Sequence record: MT446416.1
Length of the DNA: 64,000 nucleotides
Origin: Escherichia virus TH47
Reading direction: 5' to 3' (one strand)
Part shown: one piece after another, positions 6,331 to 18,441 of the stretch
Layout of the letters: every line of letters begins with the position of its first letter
How positions within the stretch are numbered: the stretch's first letter is position 1
Made by a program: the position numbers and the translations under genes
Notes under the pieces: generated by a model
What the model was told of the DNA's origin: nothing
The model's input: the letters and a program-made list of their open reading frames with translations, nothing else
The model's database searches: none

Positions 6331-6795
6331 ATGAATGAAGCAGTAGGTGCTATATTTTTATCTAAAAGTACTGGACACATGATGTTAAACTTGAGATCAG
6401 AAAGAAGTACGTATTCTAACAACTGGGCATTTGTTGGTGGGAAGCTTGAGTATAATGAAACTCCGTTACAGGGTCTTATGCGTGAGATTAAAGAAGAGCT
6501 AGGTGATTCTATTCCAACGATAATAGATATTATACCATTTGATGTATTTTGTACGAAGAATGGTAAATTTAAATATTATTCATTTGTCATTGTAGTTGAA
6601 AATGAATTCGTACCTACTTTAAATCATGAGAGTTCTGGTTATGCATGGGTTAAGATTGGCTCATGGCCCAAACCATTACATCCTGGTGCAAAAAACACAT
6701 TACTTAACACAAATTTAATGAAGGATTTCTATTCATTGTGGGAAAGTATACGACAAGGTACACAGTTTGTCAACAGCTTACCATATCGATATTAA
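6331..6795 (+). CDS. Nudix hydrolase
   Basis: Nudix box GGKLEYNETPLQGLMREIKEELG (G-x5-E-x7-REUxEExGU); AGGAGG SD. Confidence 0.8.
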   Translation: MNEAVGAIFLSKSTGHMMLNLRSERSTYSNNWAFVGGKLEYNETPLQGLMREIKEELGDSIPTIIDIIPFDVFCTKNGKFKYYSFVIVVENEFVPTLNHESSGYAWVKIGSWPKPLHPGAKNTLLNTNLMKDFYSLWESIRQGTQFVNSLPYRY

Positions 6796-6800
6796 TAAAA

Positions 6801-6830
6801 AAAGGAGCCAATGGCTCCTTTTTTCTTTTT
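6801..6830. terminator. bidirectional rho-independent terminator
   Basis: aaaggagcc/ggctccttt stem flanked by A-run and T-run, between convergent genes. Confidence 0.7.
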
Positions 6831-7929
6831 ATACCCCAATTAGTGGGATACCTGTTATATTAAGTAGAACAGATACTTGAAGCTTAACTGACTCACCTGC
6901 CGAAAGGTTGTTTACTATACCATCTACGCGGAACCCTAAGTTTTTATTAGAGTTAAGAGAGTTAATCACCCAGTTTTCGTAATCCGCTTTTGTAATACCA
7001 TTCGGATTTGGGAGAGTTGGGTCAACACCATTAATTACCATAGATACATCCCAATTAGGGCGACTACTTGTAATTACATCCTTGATTGATTCTAGTTGTG
7101 TAATGCGACGTGGGTCTGGAATCTGACTTGCACCAATTGAACCAGGAACAAATTTACCTTGGTTATCAACATAGAACTGACCTTTAATGAAAAATGTTTT
7201 TGAATTATACGGAAGAGAAACAATTTCACCTGATGAATCACTAACTTCACGAATCATAATTTTCAATTCATAAAAATAGTTACTACCAAATTCAAACACA
7301 CCAGTACCATTTGTGAATGTTGTCCAGTTATTTGAATCAACCTGTGAAGTACCACCCATATTGAAGTAAGCTAATGGCTTAGTACTGTTACTTTGTGTAA
7401 ATTCAATATATTTCTTACCTGTATCATAGTTGATATCAAGTAGTGTGGAGTACTCTTTATTTTCTGGACGAGATGTTTGAATTTCACGCCATTCTTTATT
7501 TTTCATTAGGACACGAAGGGAATCACCATTACTGGTAAGAACCATACGACCCATAATACTATTTTCACCATCTGGTACGGTGTTGAAAATTGAAATCATT
7601 GGGATAGATGCCCAGTCAGCTTCAGATGCAGTATCTACTGGCTGACGAGCATTATCAACTAATGCAAGAAGTAGTTCGCCAGTGTTGCCAGTATTTCTGT
7701 ACCAAATCTGACCATTAACGTTACCACGAGGTGCAGTTGCTCCACTGAAGTTCTCAACCAAGTGGAGGAAGTTTTCGTTCCATGCTTGACCGTAACCAAC
7801 TTTATTTCGACCTGCAAAGTTTAACGGTACTGGGTTACTACCAGGTTGGTTTGGTCCTAATATTACGTTATTTGGAATGGTAGCATAAACGCTACCATTA
7901 CTTCTATAAATTGTATAACTTACACTCAT
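6829..7929 (-). CDS. hypothetical protein (possible tail/baseplate component)
   Basis: 366-aa ORF, ATG with AAGGTGA SD; first of three co-oriented genes. Confidence 0.5.
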   Translation of the reverse strand: MSVSYTIYRSNGSVYATIPNNVILGPNQPGSNPVPLNFAGRNKVGYGQAWNENFLHLVENFSGATAPRGNVNGQIWYRNTGNTGELLLALVDNARQPVDTASEADWASIPMISIFNTVPDGENSIMGRMVLTSNGDSLRVLMKNKEWREIQTSRPENKEYSTLLDINYDTGKKYIEFTQSNSTKPLAYFNMGGTSQVDSNNWTTFTNGTGVFEFGSNYFYELKIMIREVSDSSGEIVSLPYNSKTFFIKGQFYVDNQGKFVPGSIGASQIPDPRRITQLESIKDVITSSRPNWDVSMVINGVDPTLPNPNGITKADYENWVINSLNSNKNLGFRVDGIVNNLSAGESVKLQVSVLLNITGIPLIGV

Positions 7930-7941
7930 ATCATCACCTTA

Positions 7942-8550
7942 TTATTGTAGTTGGACACGAACTGTGTATTTGATTTGCAAAACACGGTTAGCACTTTTCT
8001 CAACTGGGTGAAAAATAATATGGGTAAGTGGAATACCGCTATCACCATTTGTATATAAACCCAATTCGTCAAATACATATGTCCCATCCATGCTAGTACC
8101 AGAGCTAACACCTTGGTCAGATGGCTCACCTAAACCTAATGTACAAATACAGACGATATCAGTGTAAGCTTGGCCTGGAATGTGAACAGTTGTAATGTTG
8201 TTATATTGTGAATCAATACCAGCAGAGATACGTGGGTTGATTTTTTTCAGATAAGTCTGAGAATATAGACCACCGAAAGAAGTAACGCGTGGTTTCTTGT
8301 ATGTGATACGACCAGTACTCAAAACTACTGTTCCACCATTACCAAAACGCATCTCACTAATAGATCCAATAGGAATACCAGTACTATCTTGATTATAAGC
8401 CAACGCATTAGCAATAGCAGTACTCATATTTTCAGGGTGAATTGCGTTTGATTTATCCAAAACGATTTTTTGGTTAGATGGATCAGTAACGTCAGTAATT
8501 AGTACATGACCCTTAACAAATAGTTTTGGTTGTTCTGTTTCTAATTTCAT
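7942..8550 (-). CDS. hypothetical protein
   Basis: 202-aa ORF, ATG with AAGGA SD. Confidence 0.5.
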   Translation of the reverse strand: MKLETEQPKLFVKGHVLITDVTDPSNQKIVLDKSNAIHPENMSTAIANALAYNQDSTGIPIGSISEMRFGNGGTVVLSTGRITYKKPRVTSFGGLYSQTYLKKINPRISAGIDSQYNNITTVHIPGQAYTDIVCICTLGLGEPSDQGVSSGTSMDGTYVFDELGLYTNGDSGIPLTHIIFHPVEKSANRVLQIKYTVRVQLQ

Positions 8551-8559
8551 TTCTAATCC

Positions 8560-9057
8560 TTAGTAGTTAATTAAAATTTGTTCTAACTTACCAGCTAAAC
8601 TTTTTTGTACATCAGATGGATACTTGCTAATGTAATCACGGTCAATACCAACTTTCAGATAGGTAAAGTTTCCGGTTAAGGTTTCAGCGAATGTACCAGT
8701 TGTACCTTGTTCTCTAATAAGGTCACCACCATTTGGGTTAAGAATGACATTATCAGTAAATTCAAGATAGAAGTTGCAGCTTTCGGTAAATTTAATTGGG
8801 AACCAATCATCGTCCGATGGATTACTTGCCAGTGTAGCGAGTACGTAAATTCTACCAATGAAGTTACGTAGGGTAAAGGATATTGTATGTAATCCTGTAG
8901 TACTACCATAATAGCCGCCACTAGCTAATGATAATGTTTGTTCGTTCCAATGATAATCTAAGTTAGCAGGATACCAGCTATCTGATTCAGGAAATTCTTG
9001 CCATGAACCATCTTTAGTTTTTCTTTTGAAGAGGAAGTCTTTTGATCTTAATGCCAT
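8560..9057 (-). CDS. hypothetical protein
   Basis: 165-aa ORF; first gene of minus-strand operon. Confidence 0.45.
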   Translation of the reverse strand: MALRSKDFLFKRKTKDGSWQEFPESDSWYPANLDYHWNEQTLSLASGGYYGSTTGLHTISFTLRNFIGRIYVLATLASNPSDDDWFPIKFTESCNFYLEFTDNVILNPNGGDLIREQGTTGTFAETLTGNFTYLKVGIDRDYISKYPSDVQKSLAGKLEQILINY

Positions 9058-9088
9058 TGTTAAGCCCTTTTAGTAGTGAACTTTCATT

Positions 9089-9094
9089 TATTTA
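9089..9094 (-). promoter_or_regulatory. T4-late-like TAAATA motif 31 nt upstream of ATG 9057
   Basis: Recurrent motif and spacing. Confidence 0.3.
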
Positions 9095-9124
9095 TTAATG
9101 GCAACGAAATGTATTTTGTACTGA

Positions 9125-9130
9125 TAAATA
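9125..9130 (+). promoter_or_regulatory. T4-late-like TAAATA motif 36 nt upstream of ATG 9167
   Basis: Recurrent motif and spacing; divergent partner of the 9089 site. Confidence 0.3.
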
Positions 9131-9166
9131 TTGGTATATGACATTAACTCATACAAGGGAAATATT

Positions 9167-10294
9167 ATGACAATTTCATTCAACAATGGGTCAGGTGGTT
9201 CATGTAATAATTCTGGCATCAAAAGTTTAGTTATTAACGCTGCTGGACATTTAATTGTAACCTATTCCGACAATACAATCCAAGACCTAGGTCTAGTGGT
9301 TGGACAAAATGGTGCTAACGGTAGAAACTTTTATCCAAATGAGATAGGTTTTGAAGTTCCTAATGAACTCTTCCGTGTTGGTGAAGAACTAGGGTGGTGT
9401 TATCTTAGTCTTGCAAATGGCACTAGTACTTTATATTTTAAATCAAACGATGCACAAGAAGAAATTAGTACTTGGAACCGTGTAGAGTTTGGTAAAGGTG
9501 ATACTGGCGAAACTGGTAAACCATTCCACATTGACAGTTCTGGTACGGTGTTTCCAACAACTGGTCTTTTCAATAATTACACATTCTATAATACTGAAGA
9601 TGGTAAATTATATTTCTATCAAAGCGTAACTGCAACATGGAGTGATGGTATTCCTTTCCGTGGTGAACAAGGTCTACGTGGTCGTTTCCATATTGATAGT
9701 ACTGGTAGTCAATTCCCAAGTATTGATAATCTACCACAAGATTATTGCTTCTATAACACTACTGATGGTAATTTGTATTATGTTGATATCGTAACTACAT
9801 CATCAACCCCAACTAAAGAGTGGAGTGCTGGAATCTTATTCCGTGGTAAAGACGGTGAAGAAGGTAAGCAAGGTGAGCAAGGTGTTCAGGGTGAACCTGG
9901 TAAAGACACAGTTGTTATCATCAACACTATTGATCATTCATGGACTAACGCATTGTTAGTTATTGGTACATGCCCTGCTGGATACCTAGTAACTAATATC
10001 GAAGTTGACATTAATCAAGCATATGATGAACCAGTAAATGAAATGTTTGTACGTTTCGGTGGTGAAGCACAAGAAGATATTGGTGGTACTGTAATTGCAC
10101 CTGTTGATTATTTCGATATCAACCGCAAAATGCGTTACATTGTTAACGAAACCAACCACGAAGTATCAAGTAAAGATGAAATCATTTCTTGTGTATTCAA
10201 TGATTCCGTAAACAACAGTTCATTTGGTGAAATGAAGATCGTTTGTACTTTATCATGGCAAGCACCTATTCAGCCTATTCAAGATAACATTTAA
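9167..10294 (+). CDS. tail-fibre-like protein with collagen-like G-X-Y tract
   Basis: Seven consecutive G-X-Y triplets (GKDGEEGKQGEQGVQGEPGKD); duplicated ~30-aa segment FHIDSxG...FYNTxDGxLY; ATG 9167 preferred over TTG 9131. Confidence 0.55.
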   Translation: MTISFNNGSGGSCNNSGIKSLVINAAGHLIVTYSDNTIQDLGLVVGQNGANGRNFYPNEIGFEVPNELFRVGEELGWCYLSLANGTSTLYFKSNDAQEEISTWNRVEFGKGDTGETGKPFHIDSSGTVFPTTGLFNNYTFYNTEDGKLYFYQSVTATWSDGIPFRGEQGLRGRFHIDSTGSQFPSIDNLPQDYCFYNTTDGNLYYVDIVTTSSTPTKEWSAGILFRGKDGEEGKQGEQGVQGEPGKDTVVIINTIDHSWTNALLVIGTCPAGYLVTNIEVDINQAYDEPVNEMFVRFGGEAQEDIGGTVIAPVDYFDINRKMRYIVNETNHEVSSKDEIISCVFNDSVNNSSFGEMKIVCTLSWQAPIQPIQDNI

Positions 10295-10308
10295 AAGAGG
10301 GTTGATAC

Positions 10309-10344
10309 ATGGCAGTTTTTTCCAATTTAGAAGGGACCATGATG
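10309..10344 (+). repeat. conserved N-terminal module, copy 1, shared by adjacent fibre genes
   Basis: atggcagttttttccaatttagaagggaccatg versus copy at 12465; encodes MAVFSNLEGTM. Confidence 0.7.
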
Positions 10345-12450
10345 CCAACATTCAAGTTGGGTAAACGTGGTGCTTCTATTAATTTTGTAAACGATTCTGT
10401 CGCAATCAAAGACTTTTTAGGTGAAACGTTCCTACCTGTTAAGGTGGGAACTCCTAATGACGATGATTCCGCAGTAAACGTTATGTATCTTGAAGATAAC
10501 CCAAATGCTTTATTTGGCGTACTTCCACCAACAAATGACATTGGTAAAAATAACAACACTTATTTTCAAGTTGATTCTGAGGGTATTGTTGATATCTTTG
10601 CAAAAACAAATGATGTTTGGGTAAAATCATTATACATTAATAAAAATGTCCTTTCCAGTGTTAACGGTGCTGATTATATCGGACTTATTACTGGAGGAAC
10701 ACTCCAACAGGCACAGTTTTACATAACTCCAGAAGAGTTTGGTGCAAAAGGTGATGGCATCACTGATGACACGGCAGCGGTTAACGCATGTGCAGTTTAT
10801 GCAAAAGAACACCAAATCCAAATTCAAGCTGGTGGTAATTATCGTATCAGAACTGCTGTTTATTTGAATGATATTCAATGGTTTGGTGGAACAATCACTG
10901 GCAACGGTGGCACAATGGTATCAGTACTGAATAGTACAATCCAACAAGCAACATTAACAGGATGTTATTTAAAATTCTTTGGTGGTGATGGTAAATTTTA
11001 TTTTAATAAATTTATTAATATTACAAGTACTGCTACATTTCTAATGCAAGGTATGACTGAATCAGGTACTATCGACTTTTGCTTTAATGAAATGACACAA
11101 TGTAAGTACGGTGTTCTTCAGCAAGGCACTGGTGAGAAAATGACAGTTGGGCGTTATTCATACAACCACATCCATGATATATATGGTGATGCAATTGAAT
11201 TGAACGTAGTCAACTCACATTACCCAGACGGTTTTGTAATAGAAGGTAACTTGATTGAAAACGTAGATGGTACAGATGCACCAATTCCTCTTTCAAACTG
11301 GGGTATTGGTATCGGCGTTGCTGGTTCTGGTCCTTATGATGTGAATGCTGATGATTCACAATATGTAAAAAAATTCGTTATAAAAAATAACCGCTTGTAC
11401 AATGTCCGTCAATGTATTCACGTTGAGTTGGGTAAAGACTTTAAAATTCTCAATAATGAAGTTTATCCATCAACGTTGGTATCAATTGGTACTGGTTTGA
11501 CAACCGCTGGTGTAATTACTTATGGTTCTGTTGATTTTATTATTGATGGCCTATCTGGGCATCTATTAAATGATCCATCAGTAACTAACCGTATGGTTTC
11601 TATTAACTGGGGTGTAACATCTGGTAAATTTGCTGGTCCTCCACGTAACTTTAAATTATGTAATCTCCACATTCCTGAGTCGTCTATTATTGTGTATACT
11701 TCAGGCTCTGATAATTGGCTAAATACTACTGAACTTTCTAATATTACATGTAGTAGAATTCAATGGCGTGGATTGCCGTCATCTTCCAAGTTTAATAATA
11801 TCAGTACTAAAGAACTTGATGTTATTGGACAACACCTTGCAACTGAAGGTGAAGGAGGGGGCTTATATACTCGCTCTAAATATACATATACCAACTGGAC
11901 TAATTGTGTTGTTCAAGATGATTGTAACATATCAAAATATAGTTTCTCAAGAATGTATGTTGACCGTATTGACCAATCATCTAATAACTTTAAAGTAACC
12001 ACTGCAATTGATGGAACTGGACATCGTGGACCTGTAGTAATACCTGTAGTTGAACAGTATTACGTGCCTTATGATGTTTTTCCTGGTGGGAGATATTTCC
12101 CAGAAGGAACAATTATCCATAAACAATCAGGTGGAAAATTTATTGTTACAGTAGGTGGTTCTTTCTTTGGTCGATATGACACAATTAGACAAACAGTTGC
12201 AGGACAAACTTATATCGAAGCATTGGGTGTATCATGGGGTGATAATCAATATGCTAAAGCTGCTGGAACCGAAATCCTAATCACAGGAGCAGGGGAAAAC
12301 GGCGAAGATTTAAAAACATATATCACTAGAGCAGTTTATGTTGTTAATAATGCGTATCGTATCGATATTGCCGATCCGATTGTTACTGCTACCGCAGCAG
12401 GGGCATTATTGAAAGCTGCTCAACCAATAACATATATCACCCTATCTTAA
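10309..12450 (+). CDS. tailspike with pectate-lyase-like beta-helix (putative depolymerase)
   Basis: EFGAKGDGITDDTAAVNA motif typical of pectate-lyase-fold tailspikes; N-terminal 11 aa identical to next gene. Confidence 0.65.
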   Translation: MAVFSNLEGTMMPTFKLGKRGASINFVNDSVAIKDFLGETFLPVKVGTPNDDDSAVNVMYLEDNPNALFGVLPPTNDIGKNNNTYFQVDSEGIVDIFAKTNDVWVKSLYINKNVLSSVNGADYIGLITGGTLQQAQFYITPEEFGAKGDGITDDTAAVNACAVYAKEHQIQIQAGGNYRIRTAVYLNDIQWFGGTITGNGGTMVSVLNSTIQQATLTGCYLKFFGGDGKFYFNKFINITSTATFLMQGMTESGTIDFCFNEMTQCKYGVLQQGTGEKMTVGRYSYNHIHDIYGDAIELNVVNSHYPDGFVIEGNLIENVDGTDAPIPLSNWGIGIGVAGSGPYDVNADDSQYVKKFVIKNNRLYNVRQCIHVELGKDFKILNNEVYPSTLVSIGTGLTTAGVITYGSVDFIIDGLSGHLLNDPSVTNRMVSINWGVTSGKFAGPPRNFKLCNLHIPESSIIVYTSGSDNWLNTTELSNITCSRIQWRGLPSSSKFNNISTKELDVIGQHLATEGEGGGLYTRSKYTYTNWTNCVVQDDCNISKYSFSRMYVDRIDQSSNNFKVTTAIDGTGHRGPVVIPVVEQYYVPYDVFPGGRYFPEGTIIHKQSGGKFIVTVGGSFFGRYDTIRQTVAGQTYIEALGVSWGDNQYAKAAGTEILITGAGENGEDLKTYITRAVYVVNNAYRIDIADPIVTATAAGALLKAAQPITYITLS

Positions 12451-12464
12451 AGGAGATTATAAAA

Positions 12465-12500
12465 ATGGCAGTTTTTTCTAATTTAGAAGGAACCATGAAG
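12465..12500 (+). repeat. conserved N-terminal module, copy 2
   Basis: Near-identical to 10309-10344. Confidence 0.7.
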
Positions 12501-13364
12501 AAGACCTTCATACTTGGTAAAAATGGTGCACAAATTGCCACTAATGGTAATGTTGTTCAAATCCAGAACTACACGGGTACACAACTTCTTCCTGTTTCAG
12601 CAGGTGACCCAACCGCAAATACACACTTGGTTACATTGGGTTATTTGAATACACATAGCGGTGGTGGTGGCGGTTCCGGTATTTTACGTGGAACTATTGC
12701 ACCATCTGAATCAATTGGTGTAGATGGTGACGCTTACTTCTTAGTTGACAGTACTAATATTATTCAGATCTATATTAAAGACCTTGGTGTTTGGAAACCT
12801 CTCCAAAGCACAACTCCAGGTACTGATAGTTCTTACGTTACTACTGAAATCGTTCCTGTATCGGCATTTACATTAGTTCCTGGAACAACAGATCAATATA
12901 CTTATTCTTTACCTGAATCAGTACATGGTCGTGGTCCAGATATTATGGTTCAGCTACAGGGTGACCCTGGTAACATCCCACTTGACACTGTATTCCAAAC
13001 TAACGTCACTGTGAGTGGTATTGGTGACATTACGATTGATGTTATTGGTCAAATCACTGATTATACAAGTGTCAAAGTCAACATCATAGGAGCAACAACA
13101 ATGACAGTACCTTATAGTAAATTAATTAACCAAGCGGATTGGGTAGTATCTAGTGATGAATACACCATTACTATCCCAGCGTCTGAACATAACCAAACAC
13201 CTGATAATTTGTATATTTCAATTTATTCAAATAAAACTCCAGGTAGCACAGCAGCATCACCATTTGAACTGGTAATAACCGAAACTCAAATTGATGCAAG
13301 TGGTAATGTTACATTCACTTCTGACGAAGCGTTTAGTGGTAAAATAGTAATTTCTGGTAAATAA
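12465..13364 (+). CDS. tail fibre protein sharing N-terminal anchor with the tailspike
   Basis: MAVFSNLEGTM N-terminus; poly-Gly linker HSGGGGGSG; AAAGGAG SD. Confidence 0.55.
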   Translation: MAVFSNLEGTMKKTFILGKNGAQIATNGNVVQIQNYTGTQLLPVSAGDPTANTHLVTLGYLNTHSGGGGGSGILRGTIAPSESIGVDGDAYFLVDSTNIIQIYIKDLGVWKPLQSTTPGTDSSYVTTEIVPVSAFTLVPGTTDQYTYSLPESVHGRGPDIMVQLQGDPGNIPLDTVFQTNVTVSGIGDITIDVIGQITDYTSVKVNIIGATTMTVPYSKLINQADWVVSSDEYTITIPASEHNQTPDNLYISIYSNKTPGSTAASPFELVITETQIDASGNVTFTSDEAFSGKIVISGK

Positions 13365-13373
13365 AAAAAATAG

Positions 13374-13406
13374 TCCAGACTACGATTCATCGAGTCTGGA
13401 TTTTTT
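13374..13406 (+). terminator. rho-independent terminator
   Basis: tccagact/agtctgga stem followed by T6. Confidence 0.65.
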
Positions 13407-13482
13407 ATATCAATAACTAAATATATGTATATTAACAAGGTCAAATGTATTTTATGCTTTTTGCCTATTTGGAGGGAACTAA

Positions 13483-16400
13483 ATGTACTCGATTAAAACA
13501 GATCTCGATATAACTGGTGGTGCAACGGTTGGTAAAGATCTTCTTGTGAAAGGCGATGCAGTATTCAATAAAAATCTAACAGTTAATGGAACCGTAACTT
13601 TTGCTGACGCTGTATTCACTGCGATTGAAGCAGGAACTGTAGACATTTCATCTACACTAGATGTTGCTGGTAAAGCATCATTGAATGGTGGGATTGAAGT
13701 TCATGGTAATTCCGTAATTGGTAATTTACCAGTTGGCTCTGATACTGCAACGATTAATTCTAATGCACAATTCCAAAGCCCAGTATCAATGGCAGGTAAC
13801 CTAACACAAACGGCTGGCACTGCTGTACTAAAAGATACCCAAGTGGCATCAATGGATGTTCTTGGAACTTCTTCATTTAAAGGTAATATTACTGCTGAAA
13901 CTGGCACTACCGCAGCATTTGACAAAATAACTGCAACTGATGCAACATTCACAAACACTGCAACTACTGATATCACATCAACTGGAACTGCAAACTTTAA
14001 AGATGTGAATATTTCCGGTACACTAGGTGGAACATTTAGTCTATCTGATGTTAATGCAACAACTCTAACTGTTTCTGGTTTAACCAGTCTACAAGGTGGT
14101 GTTACATTAGGTTCCAACATTACTGGTGTGAATAGTAGTGCAAACTTCCGTGATATTAAAATTGGTTCCAATGCTGCAAACACTAACTACCGTTTGAGCT
14201 TTAACTATTCTGCTCCAAGTCTTCGTCCAACTGTAATTCTACAGAACGAAATCCAATCAGAATTGATGTCTCCAGCTACCCTAAGTGTATTGAAAACTGC
14301 ATCTTTTGGTGATTCGTCATTATCCACTTTTGGTATTACTGGTAATGGTCTAAACAAACTAGATTACCTAACAGTATCTGGTAACTCTGTTCAAGATCCA
14401 ACAACTCCACTATTACAAGTAACTTCAGGTAAAACTAAAGTTCATGATTTCGAAGTAACAGGAACTGCAACTATTCCTAACATTGAAAGTACTGGAACTG
14501 CTAATTTTAATAACATCAACGTATCTGGTACACTCGGCGGTACTTTCAGTCTTGATGATATTGAAGCAAACACTCTAACTGTTTCTGGATTAACTAGCCT
14601 TGTTGGTGGTGTAACTTTGGGTGCTGATATTTCCGGTGCTAATAGTACTGCTAATTTTAAAGCAGTAAGTTTAGGACAAAACGCAGCCGATGCTAACGTT
14701 AAGTATGGTTTTGCTTATTCTGCCCCTGGTGCACGTCCAACTGTAATTCTACAAAATGAAATTCAGTCTGAACTAGTATCTCCAGCAGTACTAAATGTAC
14801 AAAAAACTGCTACCTTCGGTGATGCATCTCTTGCAACCTATGGTATCACAGGTAACGGTCTAAACAAACTAGATTATCTATCTATTACTGGTAATGGTAC
14901 ACAAAGTCCAGCAACGCCACAACTACAAGTAGCTGGTAAATCAGTACTAAATGATGTTGAATTCACTGGTACTGTAACTGGCCTAACAGTTGATGTAAGT
15001 GGTCAAGACCTAACTCCTAAATCTGTTGTTGCTGCTGAAGCAATCAAAGGACAAACCCTTGAATCTGTTGGTCAAACCACCGTAGGAACTAACCTACAAG
15101 TTGGTGGAACAGCTAATGTTGTTGGTGCACTAACTGGTACTGCTGCAACCTTTACTGGTGACGTAAGTGCTGCTAAAGGTACTTTCAGTGGTGATGTTAG
15201 CGTTACTGGGCAAACTGTAACTGTACGTGATTTAGTAGTAACTGGCACAACTACTGGTGTAACTGCCCAAGCTGACGTTGATGGTCTTGATATCGCCCCA
15301 AATAAAGTTGATGTTACAACAACACTATCTGTTGCTGGGGACACTACTTTAGCTGGTCTAACTGCTAGTTCAGTAACAAGTACTGGTGATGTTACTGGTG
15401 CGTCTGTATCTGGTAATACAGTAACTGCGGCTGGTGCACTATCTGGTGGTTCTCTTGCAGTAACTGGTGCTGGTTCTATGGCTTCACTAACTGTTCCAAG
15501 TATTACTGGGGACACTACTTTTGCTAATAACGTAACTATTACTGGAACACTAACTCCGAGTAGTATAGATTTAAGCACTACTGATGTAAGTGCTGCTTCT
15601 TTAACAACTACTGGTAACGTAACTGTTGGTGGTTCTCTTGCAGTAACTGGTGCTATTGATTTGTCTGCTGCTGATGTAGTAACAAAATCAGTTAGTGCAA
15701 CTAACCCAAGTACATTTGGTGTAATTAATGCATCTTCTGTTGCCGCAACTGGTGACGTTTCAGGTGGCACTCTAACTACTACTGGTGCAGCGAAAGTAGG
15801 AACACTAACTAGTACTGGTGTAGTATCTGGTTCGCGTTTGTCTTCTGGTACTGCAACAATCTCAACTTCTGTAACAGTTCCAACTTTACAAGCTGAAGCT
15901 GCTGGTGCTGGTACACTAAATCTAGCAAGTAATGTTGTCGCGGCAAAAGATCTAACTGTCACTGGTGTATTCAAACCTGAAGGTGGTCTTGACCTAACAA
16001 CTGTTGATATTACTGCAAACTCACTAACTACTACTGCTGATGTTAATGTTGGTGGAAACTTAGTAGTTGATGGTACTTTTGACCTAAGTGCTGCTGATGT
16101 ATCAGTTAAATCTCTTGTAAGTGCAGAGGCAATTACTAGTGGTGGTGTGATTACCGTTACCGATTCAACCAATACTAGTTCGTTCCCTAAAATTACTTCA
16201 ACTGATGCAACACTCTTTACAGTAAATGCAGGTACTATTAATGCAACTGGCAACAGTGTACTACAAAGTGTATCAGCTACTCAAGTAACTGCTACTAGTG
16301 CTGAATTTTCTGGTAGTGGCCTTGGTCTTCAAGTTGATAATGATGCAAACGTTGGTGGTGCATTATCTGTTGGTGGCATTGCAACTGTTGGTTCTTTAAC

Positions 16401-18441
16401 AACAACTGCTGCTTCTCTTAATATTGCAAAAAATACTGCAATCAATGGTGATTTAGCTGTATCTGGTACACTAACTGCTGGTTCAATCGACCTAAGCAAT
16501 ACTGATGTAACCGTTAAATCTCTTGATTCACTAGGTAACGCACACATTGCTGGTAACCTAACTGTTGATGGTGCATTCGACTTAAGTGCAACTAACCTTG
16601 TAGCTGCAAGTCTAGCAAGTACTGGTTCTACTACTGTTGGAACTGATCTAGTACTAACAACTGGTGTTGTGACTGGTAGCCCAGCTATCTCTGGTAATAC
16701 AACAATCGGTGGAACTCTTGGTGTAACTGGTGCTGTTAACCTAACTGATATTGTTAATATCGGTAAGAAAGTAACAGTGAGTACTGGTGGTATTCAGGTA
16801 GTTGATGGTGGTATCAATACTAACACAATTAACGTTTCTGGTGCTACTACTCTAGCAGGAACTTCCATTACTGGAACTTTAGGTGTAACTGGTGCTTCTA
16901 CTCTAGCAGGTGTATCTGCAACATCACTAACAGTTTCTGGTGACAGTACTGTTCAGAAACTAACTGTCCAAGGTGAATTGATCCCACAAGGTGGTCTTGA
17001 CCTAAGCGGTGCAGACATTACTGCTAATAGTCTAACTACTGCAACAACTATCAATGCAACTGGCCTAAGTACTCTAAGTGGTGGTGTTAGTACTTCTACT
17101 GTGACTGCATCTGGTCTAGCAACTGTTGGAAGTTTAACTTCTACTGCAAACGCATCAGTTGGTGGTAATTTGGGTGTAACTGGAACTCTAGGTGTTACTG
17201 GTGCAACTACTGTATCTTCACTAACAGCTACTGGTGCAGTGAAAACTGGTACAACCCTAACTGTTGGTACTCCAGTTGGTGAACAACCTGAAACTGTACA
17301 GATCATTCCAGATACTTATATTGCTGGTAAATTGCGTGTAATCGGCGGTATTAACGCTGATATTGATGTTAGTGGTCAAACACTAGAACCATATGCAATT
17401 GAAGCTGCTGCAACACTATCTGCTGTTGGTAACATTACTTCTGGTGCAACCATCGTTTCTAAAGCTGCAACAATTGGTGATGTTGGTTCACAAAACAACA
17501 ACCTAACTGTTAATGGTAACGTAGTAACTAATGGTGACTTCACAGTTACTGGGGTACTAAATGCACAATTGAACCAAGCAGATTCCGATGTAGCTGTTAA
17601 ATCTTTAACTGCAACTAATAACGTTGCGGCTGGTACTTCAATCACTGCTGGTACTTCCATCACTGCAACTGGATTACTTAAAGGTAATACTTTAGAAGTT
17701 ACTACTACTGGTTCATTTGGTGGTGCAGTAACTATGTCAAGTGGTGCAAACATCACTGGTACAGTGGGTATTACTGCTGGTGACCTAACAGTAGGTGGTA
17801 ATATCTCTGCAACTGGCACTGCTGGATTCGGTGCAACAACCGTTTCTACAATTACAACATCAGGTTTGGCTACACTTGCAAGTACATCCGTTACTGGTAA
17901 CGCAACAGTAGGTGGAACACTAGCAGTAACAGGAGCACTAACTGCGAATGGTAACGTAACATTAGGTGACGCAGCGGCTGACGTTCTAACCGTTAATGCA
18001 ACTTCATCATTTAAAGAAAATGCTGTGTTTGATAAGGCAGTAACAGTAACTGGTGAACTAACCACTACTAATGCTAACTTAACTACTACAACAGTAACTA
18101 CCAAAAAGTATGATGTAATCCCAACTCAAGTTACATCATCAGTAATTGCTCCAACCGGAACATGGACTCCAGATGGTACAAGTAACGTGTACTTCATCAC
18201 TCTAGACCAAGATACCACGTTGGCTCCAATTACTGGCCTAATTGGTGGCGGTAAAGCTGCATCAGTATACATCTATGTTAAACAAGATACAACTGGTAAC
18301 AGAAACTTTACAACTGATGGTACTTATGCTGTTGTTGATGGTGAACTAAACAAAACTGCTGGTAGCGTGACCATTTACCAAGTAATTTATGATGGTGTAA
18401 GTCCAGTTACTGATTTGTTCATTGCACAACGTACTGCTTAA
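13483..18441 (+). CDS. giant repetitive fibrous protein (1652 aa)
   Basis: T/G/V/S/A-rich periodic sequence; GGAGGG SD; tandem 170-aa duplication near N-terminus. Confidence 0.6.
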   Translation: MYSIKTDLDITGGATVGKDLLVKGDAVFNKNLTVNGTVTFADAVFTAIEAGTVDISSTLDVAGKASLNGGIEVHGNSVIGNLPVGSDTATINSNAQFQSPVSMAGNLTQTAGTAVLKDTQVASMDVLGTSSFKGNITAETGTTAAFDKITATDATFTNTATTDITSTGTANFKDVNISGTLGGTFSLSDVNATTLTVSGLTSLQGGVTLGSNITGVNSSANFRDIKIGSNAANTNYRLSFNYSAPSLRPTVILQNEIQSELMSPATLSVLKTASFGDSSLSTFGITGNGLNKLDYLTVSGNSVQDPTTPLLQVTSGKTKVHDFEVTGTATIPNIESTGTANFNNINVSGTLGGTFSLDDIEANTLTVSGLTSLVGGVTLGADISGANSTANFKAVSLGQNAADANVKYGFAYSAPGARPTVILQNEIQSELVSPAVLNVQKTATFGDASLATYGITGNGLNKLDYLSITGNGTQSPATPQLQVAGKSVLNDVEFTGTVTGLTVDVSGQDLTPKSVVAAEAIKGQTLESVGQTTVGTNLQVGGTANVVGALTGTAATFTGDVSAAKGTFSGDVSVTGQTVTVRDLVVTGTTTGVTAQADVDGLDIAPNKVDVTTTLSVAGDTTLAGLTASSVTSTGDVTGASVSGNTVTAAGALSGGSLAVTGAGSMASLTVPSITGDTTFANNVTITGTLTPSSIDLSTTDVSAASLTTTGNVTVGGSLAVTGAIDLSAADVVTKSVSATNPSTFGVINASSVAATGDVSGGTLTTTGAAKVGTLTSTGVVSGSRLSSGTATISTSVTVPTLQAEAAGAGTLNLASNVVAAKDLTVTGVFKPEGGLDLTTVDITANSLTTTADVNVGGNLVVDGTFDLSAADVSVKSLVSAEAITSGGVITVTDSTNTSSFPKITSTDATLFTVNAGTINATGNSVLQSVSATQVTATSAEFSGSGLGLQVDNDANVGGALSVGGIATVGSLTTTAASLNIAKNTAINGDLAVSGTLTAGSIDLSNTDVTVKSLDSLGNAHIAGNLTVDGAFDLSATNLVAASLASTGSTTVGTDLVLTTGVVTGSPAISGNTTIGGTLGVTGAVNLTDIVNIGKKVTVSTGGIQVVDGGINTNTINVSGATTLAGTSITGTLGVTGASTLAGVSATSLTVSGDSTVQKLTVQGELIPQGGLDLSGADITANSLTTATTINATGLSTLSGGVSTSTVTASGLATVGSLTSTANASVGGNLGVTGTLGVTGATTVSSLTATGAVKTGTTLTVGTPVGEQPETVQIIPDTYIAGKLRVIGGINADIDVSGQTLEPYAIEAAATLSAVGNITSGATIVSKAATIGDVGSQNNNLTVNGNVVTNGDFTVTGVLNAQLNQADSDVAVKSLTATNNVAAGTSITAGTSITATGLLKGNTLEVTTTGSFGGAVTMSSGANITGTVGITAGDLTVGGNISATGTAGFGATTVSTITTSGLATLASTSVTGNATVGGTLAVTGALTANGNVTLGDAAADVLTVNATSSFKENAVFDKAVTVTGELTTTNANLTTTTVTTKKYDVIPTQVTSSVIAPTGTWTPDGTSNVYFITLDQDTTLAPITGLIGGGKAASVYIYVKQDTTGNRNFTTDGTYAVVDGELNKTAGSVTIYQVIYDGVSPVTDLFIAQRTA
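13978..14997 (+). repeat. tandem duplication (2 x about 510 bp) inside the giant fibre gene
   Basis: Protein segments 166-335 and 336-500 align over their full length (STGTANF...TVILQNEIQSEL...GITGNGLNKLDYL). Confidence 0.7.

Follow-up and report, generated by a model that had tools for sequence, protein, structure and literature searches.

We analysed a 64,000-nucleotide (nt) stretch of Escherichia virus TH47 (sequence record MT446416.1), which is of the Asteriusvirus (Rak2-like) type of jumbo coliphages; this whole stretch is referred to below as the window. The element considered here is a plus-strand open reading frame (ORF) with an ATG at position 9167, whose product of 375 amino acids (aa) had been taken for a trimeric fibre with a short collagen-like stalk in an earlier sequence-only reading. 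The product matches PHROG 13565, annotated as "tail protein", over positions 1-375 of 375 (E 2.5e-213), and its gene is located between a tail-completion gene and tailspike and tail-fibre genes, which agrees with its assignment to the fibre proteins. In public records the gene is named tail fiber protein, tail protein, structural protein or hypothetical protein. The surrounding region, 8500-13500, shows 98.9% identity to Escherichia phages fEgEco12 and WPEC5, and approximately 81% to phAPEC6, SP27 and G17.

The gene is conserved among Rak2-like phages. In fact, 71 phage records carry it, exactly one copy each, and the hosts of these phages belong to Escherichia, Klebsiella (RaK2 gp062, K64-1), Salmonella, Erwinia, Yersinia, Cronobacter (GAP32), Serratia, Pectobacterium (CBB) and Xanthomonas. 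Moreover, 55 full-length clusters of about 370-385 aa were obtained from a large protein database, with identities of 43-98%. The proteins of Ecwhy_1, fEgEco12 and WPEC5 are 98-99.5% identical to the TH47 protein, those of phAPEC6 (gp253) and 121Q (gene 574) 81%, and RaK2 gp062 about 70%; the last three, together with CBB_228 and GAP32_222, are the named members of PHROG 13565.

The protein contains 16 glycine-X-Y (G-X-Y) triplets in four segments (3 + 3 + 3 + 7) that alternate with folded units along the chain (Table 1). The seven uninterrupted triplets reported by the sequence-only reading, GKDGEEGKQGEQGVQGEPGKD, are indeed present, and none of 100,000 shuffles of the protein reached seven, with the longest run, of six triplets, appearing in 42 shuffles. 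At the DNA level the run holds merely a 9-bp tandem repeated 2.7 times, and a recent origin by slippage was rejected on this ground. The three segments of three triplets, a divergent repeat copy and a C-terminal beta domain of 128 aa are additional to what that reading had described.

We then compared the segments among the homologues. Their positions are constant in nearly all of the 55 clusters, their glycines are invariant or at least 90% conserved, and the insertions and deletions within them are mostly whole triplets. P0010 has one triplet (3 aa) fewer, segment 1 is shorter by exactly one triplet (3 aa) in P0053-55, and P0053 and P0054 have one additional triplet (3 aa) in segment 2. Segment 3 is more variable, with seven triplets in 15 clusters, six in 18, four to five in seven and a 3 + 3 form in 15, and the uninterrupted run of seven is clade-specific.

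Table 1. Positions of the gene, its candidate ribosome-binding site and the parts of its product in the window, with the basis of each
Feature	Position	Strand	Basis
Shine-Dalgarno-like AAGGG, 7 nt upstream of ATG	9155..9159	+	read from sequence
Complete ORF; core gene of Rak2-like jumbo phages for a 375-aa structural or fibre protein of the virion (PHROG 13565)	9167..10294	+	ATG 9167, stop 10292-10294; homology
N-terminal domain, aa 1-45, three-stranded beta-meander, putative virion anchor	9167..9301	+	AlphaFold strands 18-23, 28-33, 38-43
G-X-Y segment 0, aa 46-54 (GQNGANGRN), 3 triplets	9302..9328	+	G46, G49, G52 >=90% conserved
Module M0, aa 55-110, probable divergent repeat copy	9329..9496	+	external HMM match, AlphaFold strand order
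G-X-Y segment 1, aa 111-119 (GDTGETGKP), 3 triplets	9497..9523	+	G111, G114 invariant
Module M1, aa 120-165	9524..9661	+	45.9 bits to external HMM; pLDDT 88-95 in fragment model
G-X-Y segment 2, aa 166-173 (GEQGLRGR), third triplet closes with F174 of M2	9662..9685	+	G166, G169, G172 invariant
Module M2, aa 174-226	9686..9844	+	22.3 bits to external HMM; fragment model
G-X-Y segment 3, aa 227-247, seven uninterrupted triplets, charge-rich, one proline	9845..9907	+	shuffle test
C-terminal jelly-roll domain, aa 248-375 (128 aa), putative trimeric knob	9908..10291	+	confident beta domain in AlphaFold model

Two copies of a motif of about 30 aa had also been recognised beforehand, and they proved to be the core of a longer unit. 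The two modules, M1 and M2, reach a BLOSUM62 local score of 114-120, while shuffles give 24 +/- 5 (z about 19, 0 of 2000 shuffles); their strongly similar core spans about 32 aa (FHIDS.G..FP...Y.FYNT.DG.LY) and the whole unit 46-53 aa. Because their DNA identity is only 73-75%, in matches of 55 and 36 nt (spacings 165 and 183 nt), the duplication is old. A hidden Markov model (HMM) of the module, built only from unrelated proteins, matches both copies and also aa 74-114 in M0 (8.8 bits, independent E-value 1e-4), and the AlphaFold strand order of M0 is the same as that of M1 and M2. On this external match and predicted strand pattern M0 is probably a third copy, although its pairwise comparison with M1 or M2 is not significant (z < 2.3).

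The AlphaFold monomer model, made with a 26-sequence alignment, has a mean pLDDT (predicted local distance difference test) of 75, with about 80-90 in the folded units; when aa 109-232 were modelled alone, the mean was 82 and block means were about 75-95 across the modules. Apart from the modules, a beta-meander is predicted at the N-terminus and a jelly roll at the C-terminus. Mean pairwise identity in the family is highest at the N-terminus (0.70), followed by the C-terminal domain (0.60) and the modules (0.49-0.54). Scans of Pfam-A and NCBIfam placed no model on the modules, the N-terminus or the C-terminal domain, nor on the module in any of the proteins scanned, and the domain scan found no coiled-coil or Phage_fiber_2 domain in the protein. 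No second ORF with the module or a long G-X-Y run was found in the 64-kb window.

Two metagenomic variants, P0056 and P0057, are encoded in the identical slot: ahead of each come genes for a ClpA-like ATPase, a gp15-like tail completion protein and a NUDIX protein, and then three minus-strand genes (about 365, 202 and 165 aa). P0057 (416 aa; L007, 8001-9251) keeps the N-terminus, M0 and the C-terminal domain, while 62 uninterrupted G-X-Y triplets replace M1 and M2; a precomputed match to Pfam Collagen (PF01391) exists for this orthologue. M1 and M2 therefore seem to be parts of a shaft that can be replaced by plain collagen. In addition, since a perfect G-X-Y run of 186 residues is hard to read except as a triple helix, P0057 implies a trimer for the family. 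P0056 (270 aa; L008, 8001-8813) is 75% identical over aa 1-112 and then continues into an unrelated C-terminus with a weak DUF4376 match, with the recombination breakpoint at aa 112, the start of the second G-X-Y segment. The first approximately 110 aa are thus the constant part, and such a constant N-terminus, judged from sequence, is the usual signature of the end by which a fibre is attached to the virion. In both variants a conserved N-terminal anchor region goes together with an exchangeable distal part, as is found in fibres.

The collagen-like nature of the segments is supported indirectly by the conserved glycines, the whole-triplet indels and the syntenic orthologue with 62 triplets. 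To this extent the collagen-like stalk of the sequence-only reading stands; its layout, a short stalk beside a duplicated module, does not, as the predicted arrangement is a rod divided into segments, with the three modules inserted between the four short G-X-Y stretches.

The presence of the protein in virions, which that reading presumed, holds for two homologues. The 14 unique peptides of gp253 from purified phAPEC6 virions covered 65.6% of the protein, one of the highest coverages listed (PMC7247149), and CBB_228 was detected by mass spectrometry with 13 peptides and 44% coverage (PMC5259590). Collagen is not mentioned for the fibre protein in the virion literature of phAPEC6, CBB and RaK2 (PMC7247149, PMC5259590, PMC3622015, PMC10253068), and the protein is dealt with neither in the paper on the cryo-electron microscopy (cryo-EM) of phiKp24 nor in a study of the RaK2 adsorption complex, which covered ten other proteins (PMC10253068).

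Taken together, the protein is rather likely a homotrimeric, short and segmented virion fibre of roughly 30 nm, anchored by its N-terminus. From the N-terminus on, each chain would consist of the beta-meander (aa 1-45), the four G-X-Y segments alternating with M0-M2, and the jelly-roll knob. Because segments of three triplets are too short to form a triple helix alone, the modules and the knob may act as nodes of trimerisation and registration, which would clamp the three chains and keep the short segments in register; the shaft would then be a chain of short triple helices. If the module clamps three chains in this way, it would explain how triple-helical segments of three triplets can exist. 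The fibre would be attached through its conserved N-terminal region of about 110 aa, and the gene position makes the baseplate or distal tail the most probable site on the virion. At the distal end the fibre would be capped by the jelly-roll trimer, which probably nucleates the folding of the longest collagen segment. The knob is well conserved between phages of different host genera, which makes a conserved ligand or partner more likely as its target than a receptor that determines host range.

With usual per-residue and domain dimensions, we estimated the length of such a trimer at about 27-32 nm, of which 48 collagen residues at 0.286 nm account for about 14 nm, and the three modules, the N-terminal domain and the knob for the remainder. 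The baseplate fibres of CBB measure 28.6 +/- 2.7 nm including their terminal globules, and the two lengths match, which is a correlation only. The 119-nm tail "whisker" of CBB and phAPEC6 was also considered as the structure formed by this protein and was rejected: a chain of this size is too short, and RaK2 and GAP32 carry the gene as well.

Two sets of observations weigh against this reading. The first concerns the triple helix. The score of PF01391 on the protein is 16.9 bits, below the gathering cut-off of 27.2 bits; all G-X-Y segments have a pLDDT below 50 in the monomer model, as is expected for a single chain; three triplets are very short for a triple helix; and in the 15 clusters with the 3 + 3 form, about a quarter of the total, a one-residue deletion gives a G-x-x-x-x-G break of the long run. 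All four would also be compatible with flexible glycine-rich linkers that form no triple helix, in a structural protein that is monomeric or oligomerised otherwise. We regard this as very improbable, since linkers would neither hold a glycine at every third position at four sites across homologues of 43-98% identity nor limit most indels to whole triplets, and they would not be replaceable by a perfect run of 62 triplets. Moreover, the same module sits in long bona fide collagen repeats of unrelated proteins.

The second set concerns whether and where the protein is found on the particle. RaK2 gp062 was predicted to be structural and yet was not detected by mass spectrometry (PMC3622015). In structure, the C-terminal domain is matched best by capsid proteins and not by tail proteins. 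In phAPEC6, fibres with no gene assignment were seen by cryo-EM at the centre of each capsid hexamer, as rings on the sheath, as 12 elongated proteins at the collar and distal tail, and as six baseplate fibres, and those on capsid, collar and sheath are further candidates for this protein.

Some of these observations bear on another possibility, in which the same trimeric fibre is mounted in reverse or elsewhere: like a cement or decoration protein, the jelly roll would attach to the collar, the sheath or the hexamer centres or three-fold sites of the capsid, and the rod would point outward as one of the unassigned head or tail "hairs". Some of the fibres at the hexamer centres look trimeric, the fibre rings and the 12 elongated proteins could be accommodated as well, the 65.6% coverage of gp253 would suit a protein of many copies, and the C-terminal fold matches capsid cement proteins. 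Nevertheless, we consider this mounting unlikely. The gene is in the tail, baseplate and fibre block in every relative and not among the head genes; the exchange in P0056 affects the C-terminus and spares the N-terminus, as is usual for proteins that are anchored N-terminally; a chain of 375 aa is too short for the 119-nm hairs of CBB; the gene also exists in RaK2 and GAP32, for which no hairs have been described; and the jelly-roll fold is common in distal fibre knobs too. We therefore retain the N-terminally anchored fibre as the preferred interpretation.

We further searched for the module in other proteins, using phmmer with aa 120-226 against 1.84 billion representative proteins. The search returned 29 matches at E <=1e-3, and a few of them, such as P0065, P0067, P0074 and P0083, are clearly spurious repeat proteins. 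The informative matches are large proteins in which the module occurs two to six times each, and the full-length instances that were extracted have G-X-Y repeats on both sides. P0060, for example, is a protein of 3351 aa with four copies of the module within a huge collagen region; other bearers are P0061, P0068, P0080, P0082 and the group P0062/63/73/76/85. In proteins of the P0062 type, some copies of the module adjoin with no G-X-Y between them. PF01391 matches these unrelated proteins with E-values down to 1e-42, several of them carry hallmarks of tail fibres (the intramolecular chaperone Peptidase_S74, Collar), and the scanned examples match PHROGs annotated as tail fibre. The consensus of the module is G-x-x-F-x-[IV]-D-x-x-G ... 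Y-x-F-[YL]-x-T-x-x-G-x-[LI]-Y ... W-S-x-G-[IV]-x-F-x-G, and a shorter related hairpin motif, P...G..GD.[FWY].NT.DG.LY...W, was found in the fibre proteins P0066, P0072 and P0075.

No solved structure was matched by the module profile at the sequence level. The PDB sequence searches with the family profile and the module profile returned only weak and spurious matches (a nanobody construct, monocot lectins, WW domains and designed Kelch propellers), which were discarded. At the level of predicted structure the module may resemble the trimerisation domain of the multiplexins (collagens XV and XVIII), a match that is suggestive and not proof. As a rule, a collagen depends on a neighbouring trimerisation domain, by which its chains are selected and aligned and their folding is nucleated; the recognised classes of such domains include C1q-type jelly rolls and the multiplexin domain (PMC5126661). 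A resemblance to collagens XV and XVIII would fit collagen biology in this respect. We tentatively suggest, as a possibility that we would not yet favour, that the module of about 50 aa might represent an uncurated and widespread family of domains embedded in the collagen of phage and bacterial fibres, where they would serve trimerisation and registration in the way that the NC1 trimerisation domain does in the multiplexins. If this were true, such a unit would allow a "beads on a string" construction of fibres in which triple-helical segments need be no longer than three triplets; the module could also serve as a very small natural nucleation unit for designed collagen-like proteins and would be a compact block for engineered trimers.

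The protein can be compared with three further types of known systems. First, collagen-like tail fibres of phages and prophages (PF01391; proteins of E. coli O157 prophages, PMC3368898; PHROGs 3904, 819 and 17587) likewise contain G-X-Y repeats flanked by non-collagen domains in a virion fibre, and their composition is also charge-rich and proline-poor. PHROG 3904 matches aa 109-275 of the TH47 protein (E 6.8e-10), and the module-bearing relatives belong to PHROGs 3904, 819 and 17587. The TH47 protein differs from these fibres in that its collagen is minimal (16 triplets), is cut into four by three beta modules and is below the Pfam threshold. Second, in the C1q/TNF-type arrangement (collagens VIII and X, C1q) a collagen stalk is followed by a C-terminal trimeric jelly-roll head. 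Bacillus BclA and PRD1 P5 are further examples of this arrangement. A jelly-roll fold is likewise predicted here at the C-terminus of a collagen-like stalk, as in C1q/TNF-like heads. However, aa 248-375 have no match in Pfam or NCBIfam, including the C1q and TNF families, the structures that match best are those of cement or capsid-associated proteins of phages rather than C1q, and the trimer is a putative one. Third, the jelly rolls of phage capsid cement and decoration proteins (KHP40 gp16, the cement protein of Pam1 and the virion-associated protein GP4 of a Ralstonia phage) share 5-14% sequence identity with the C-terminal domain. These are stand-alone head proteins of about 130 aa, whereas the domain described here forms the end of a 375-aa fibre in a tail gene block.

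Collagen-like stretches are common in phage fibres, and catalogues already list the family among virion or tail proteins; the less ordinary features are the beads-on-a-string layout with three-triplet segments and the uncurated module embedded in collagen. The understanding of phage fibres is not changed by this finding, whose value is descriptive. It provides a domain map for an abundant virion protein that has no assigned function; the protein is conserved throughout the Rak2-like jumbo phages, and their fibre apparatus is only partly assigned to genes.

The slot of the gene is conserved: three minus-strand virion genes precede it, and before these come a NUDIX gene and, first, a gp15-like tail completion gene. 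In every relative examined the fibre gene lies between this gp15-like gene and the tailspike and long-tail-fibre genes. The NUDIX/MutT hydrolase gene (6331-6795, +) is located between the gp15-like gene and the virion and fibre genes and is kept in all relatives examined. The three divergently transcribed genes (6829-7929, 7942-8550 and 8560-9057, all on the minus strand) have no Pfam match, and their synteny with the fibre gene is strictly kept in all relatives, including both metagenomic contigs. The phAPEC6 homologues of the first two, gp250c and gp251c, are virion proteins by mass spectrometry, and one of the three genes is annotated as "baseplate protein" in fEgEco12.

Downstream, the gene at 10309-12450 (+) encodes a tailspike of the colanic-acid-degrading type (phrog_6117; weak pectate-lyase match), and the gene at 12465-13364 (+) a virion structural protein of 299 aa (phrog_10468). 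In the record of vB_Ec-M-J the tailspike gene is split into two coding sequences. The N-terminal approximately 110 aa are common to both downstream proteins (41% identity; each begins MAVFSNLEGTM), which suggests, at the level of sequence, a common attachment adaptor. By eye, a hairpin-like motif, P....IG..G..YF.VDS..I..I..K....W, can be seen in both N-termini (10309-10640 and 12465-12800, +); it resembles the core of the fibre module and also a short motif repeated in proteins such as P0072 and P0066, and the module HMM does not score it.

This arrangement raises the question of a branching scaffold, that is, a baseplate-attached fibre whose modules dock the N-terminal adaptors of the colanidase tailspike and of the virion protein encoded just downstream. 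The sharing of an N-terminus usually marks a common partner, the genes are co-oriented and only 14 nt apart, and related jumbo phages make branched fibre complexes from N-terminal adaptors (PMC10253068). Such docking is nonetheless quite doubtful to us: CBB and RaK2 have no tailspike in this slot and yet an unchanged fibre gene, and P0057 has plain collagen in place of M1 and M2, so that the modules are not indispensable docking sites. A plain segmented fibre thus remains our preferred reading of the gene.

As for the translation start, the ORF list extended the frame to a TTG at 9131. This start was rejected in favour of the ATG at 9167, which is supported by the Shine-Dalgarno-like AAGGG upstream of it and by the MTISF start of most homologues. 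In P0015, P0018, P0025 and P0043 an N-terminal extension of 9 aa (MTITHKEIY or MAIQHKEIH) stands ahead of MTISF, and this could be an alternative upstream start or a difference in gene calling. In a scan for sigma-70 promoters and terminators, sites were no more numerous than in shuffled sequence.

Further downstream, a protein of 1652 aa that resembles the proximal subunit of long tail fibres (13483-18441, +) contains a run of five G-X-Y triplets, GNLGVTGTLGVTGAT, at aa 1228-1242, which is the only other run of at least four triplets in the 64-kb window.

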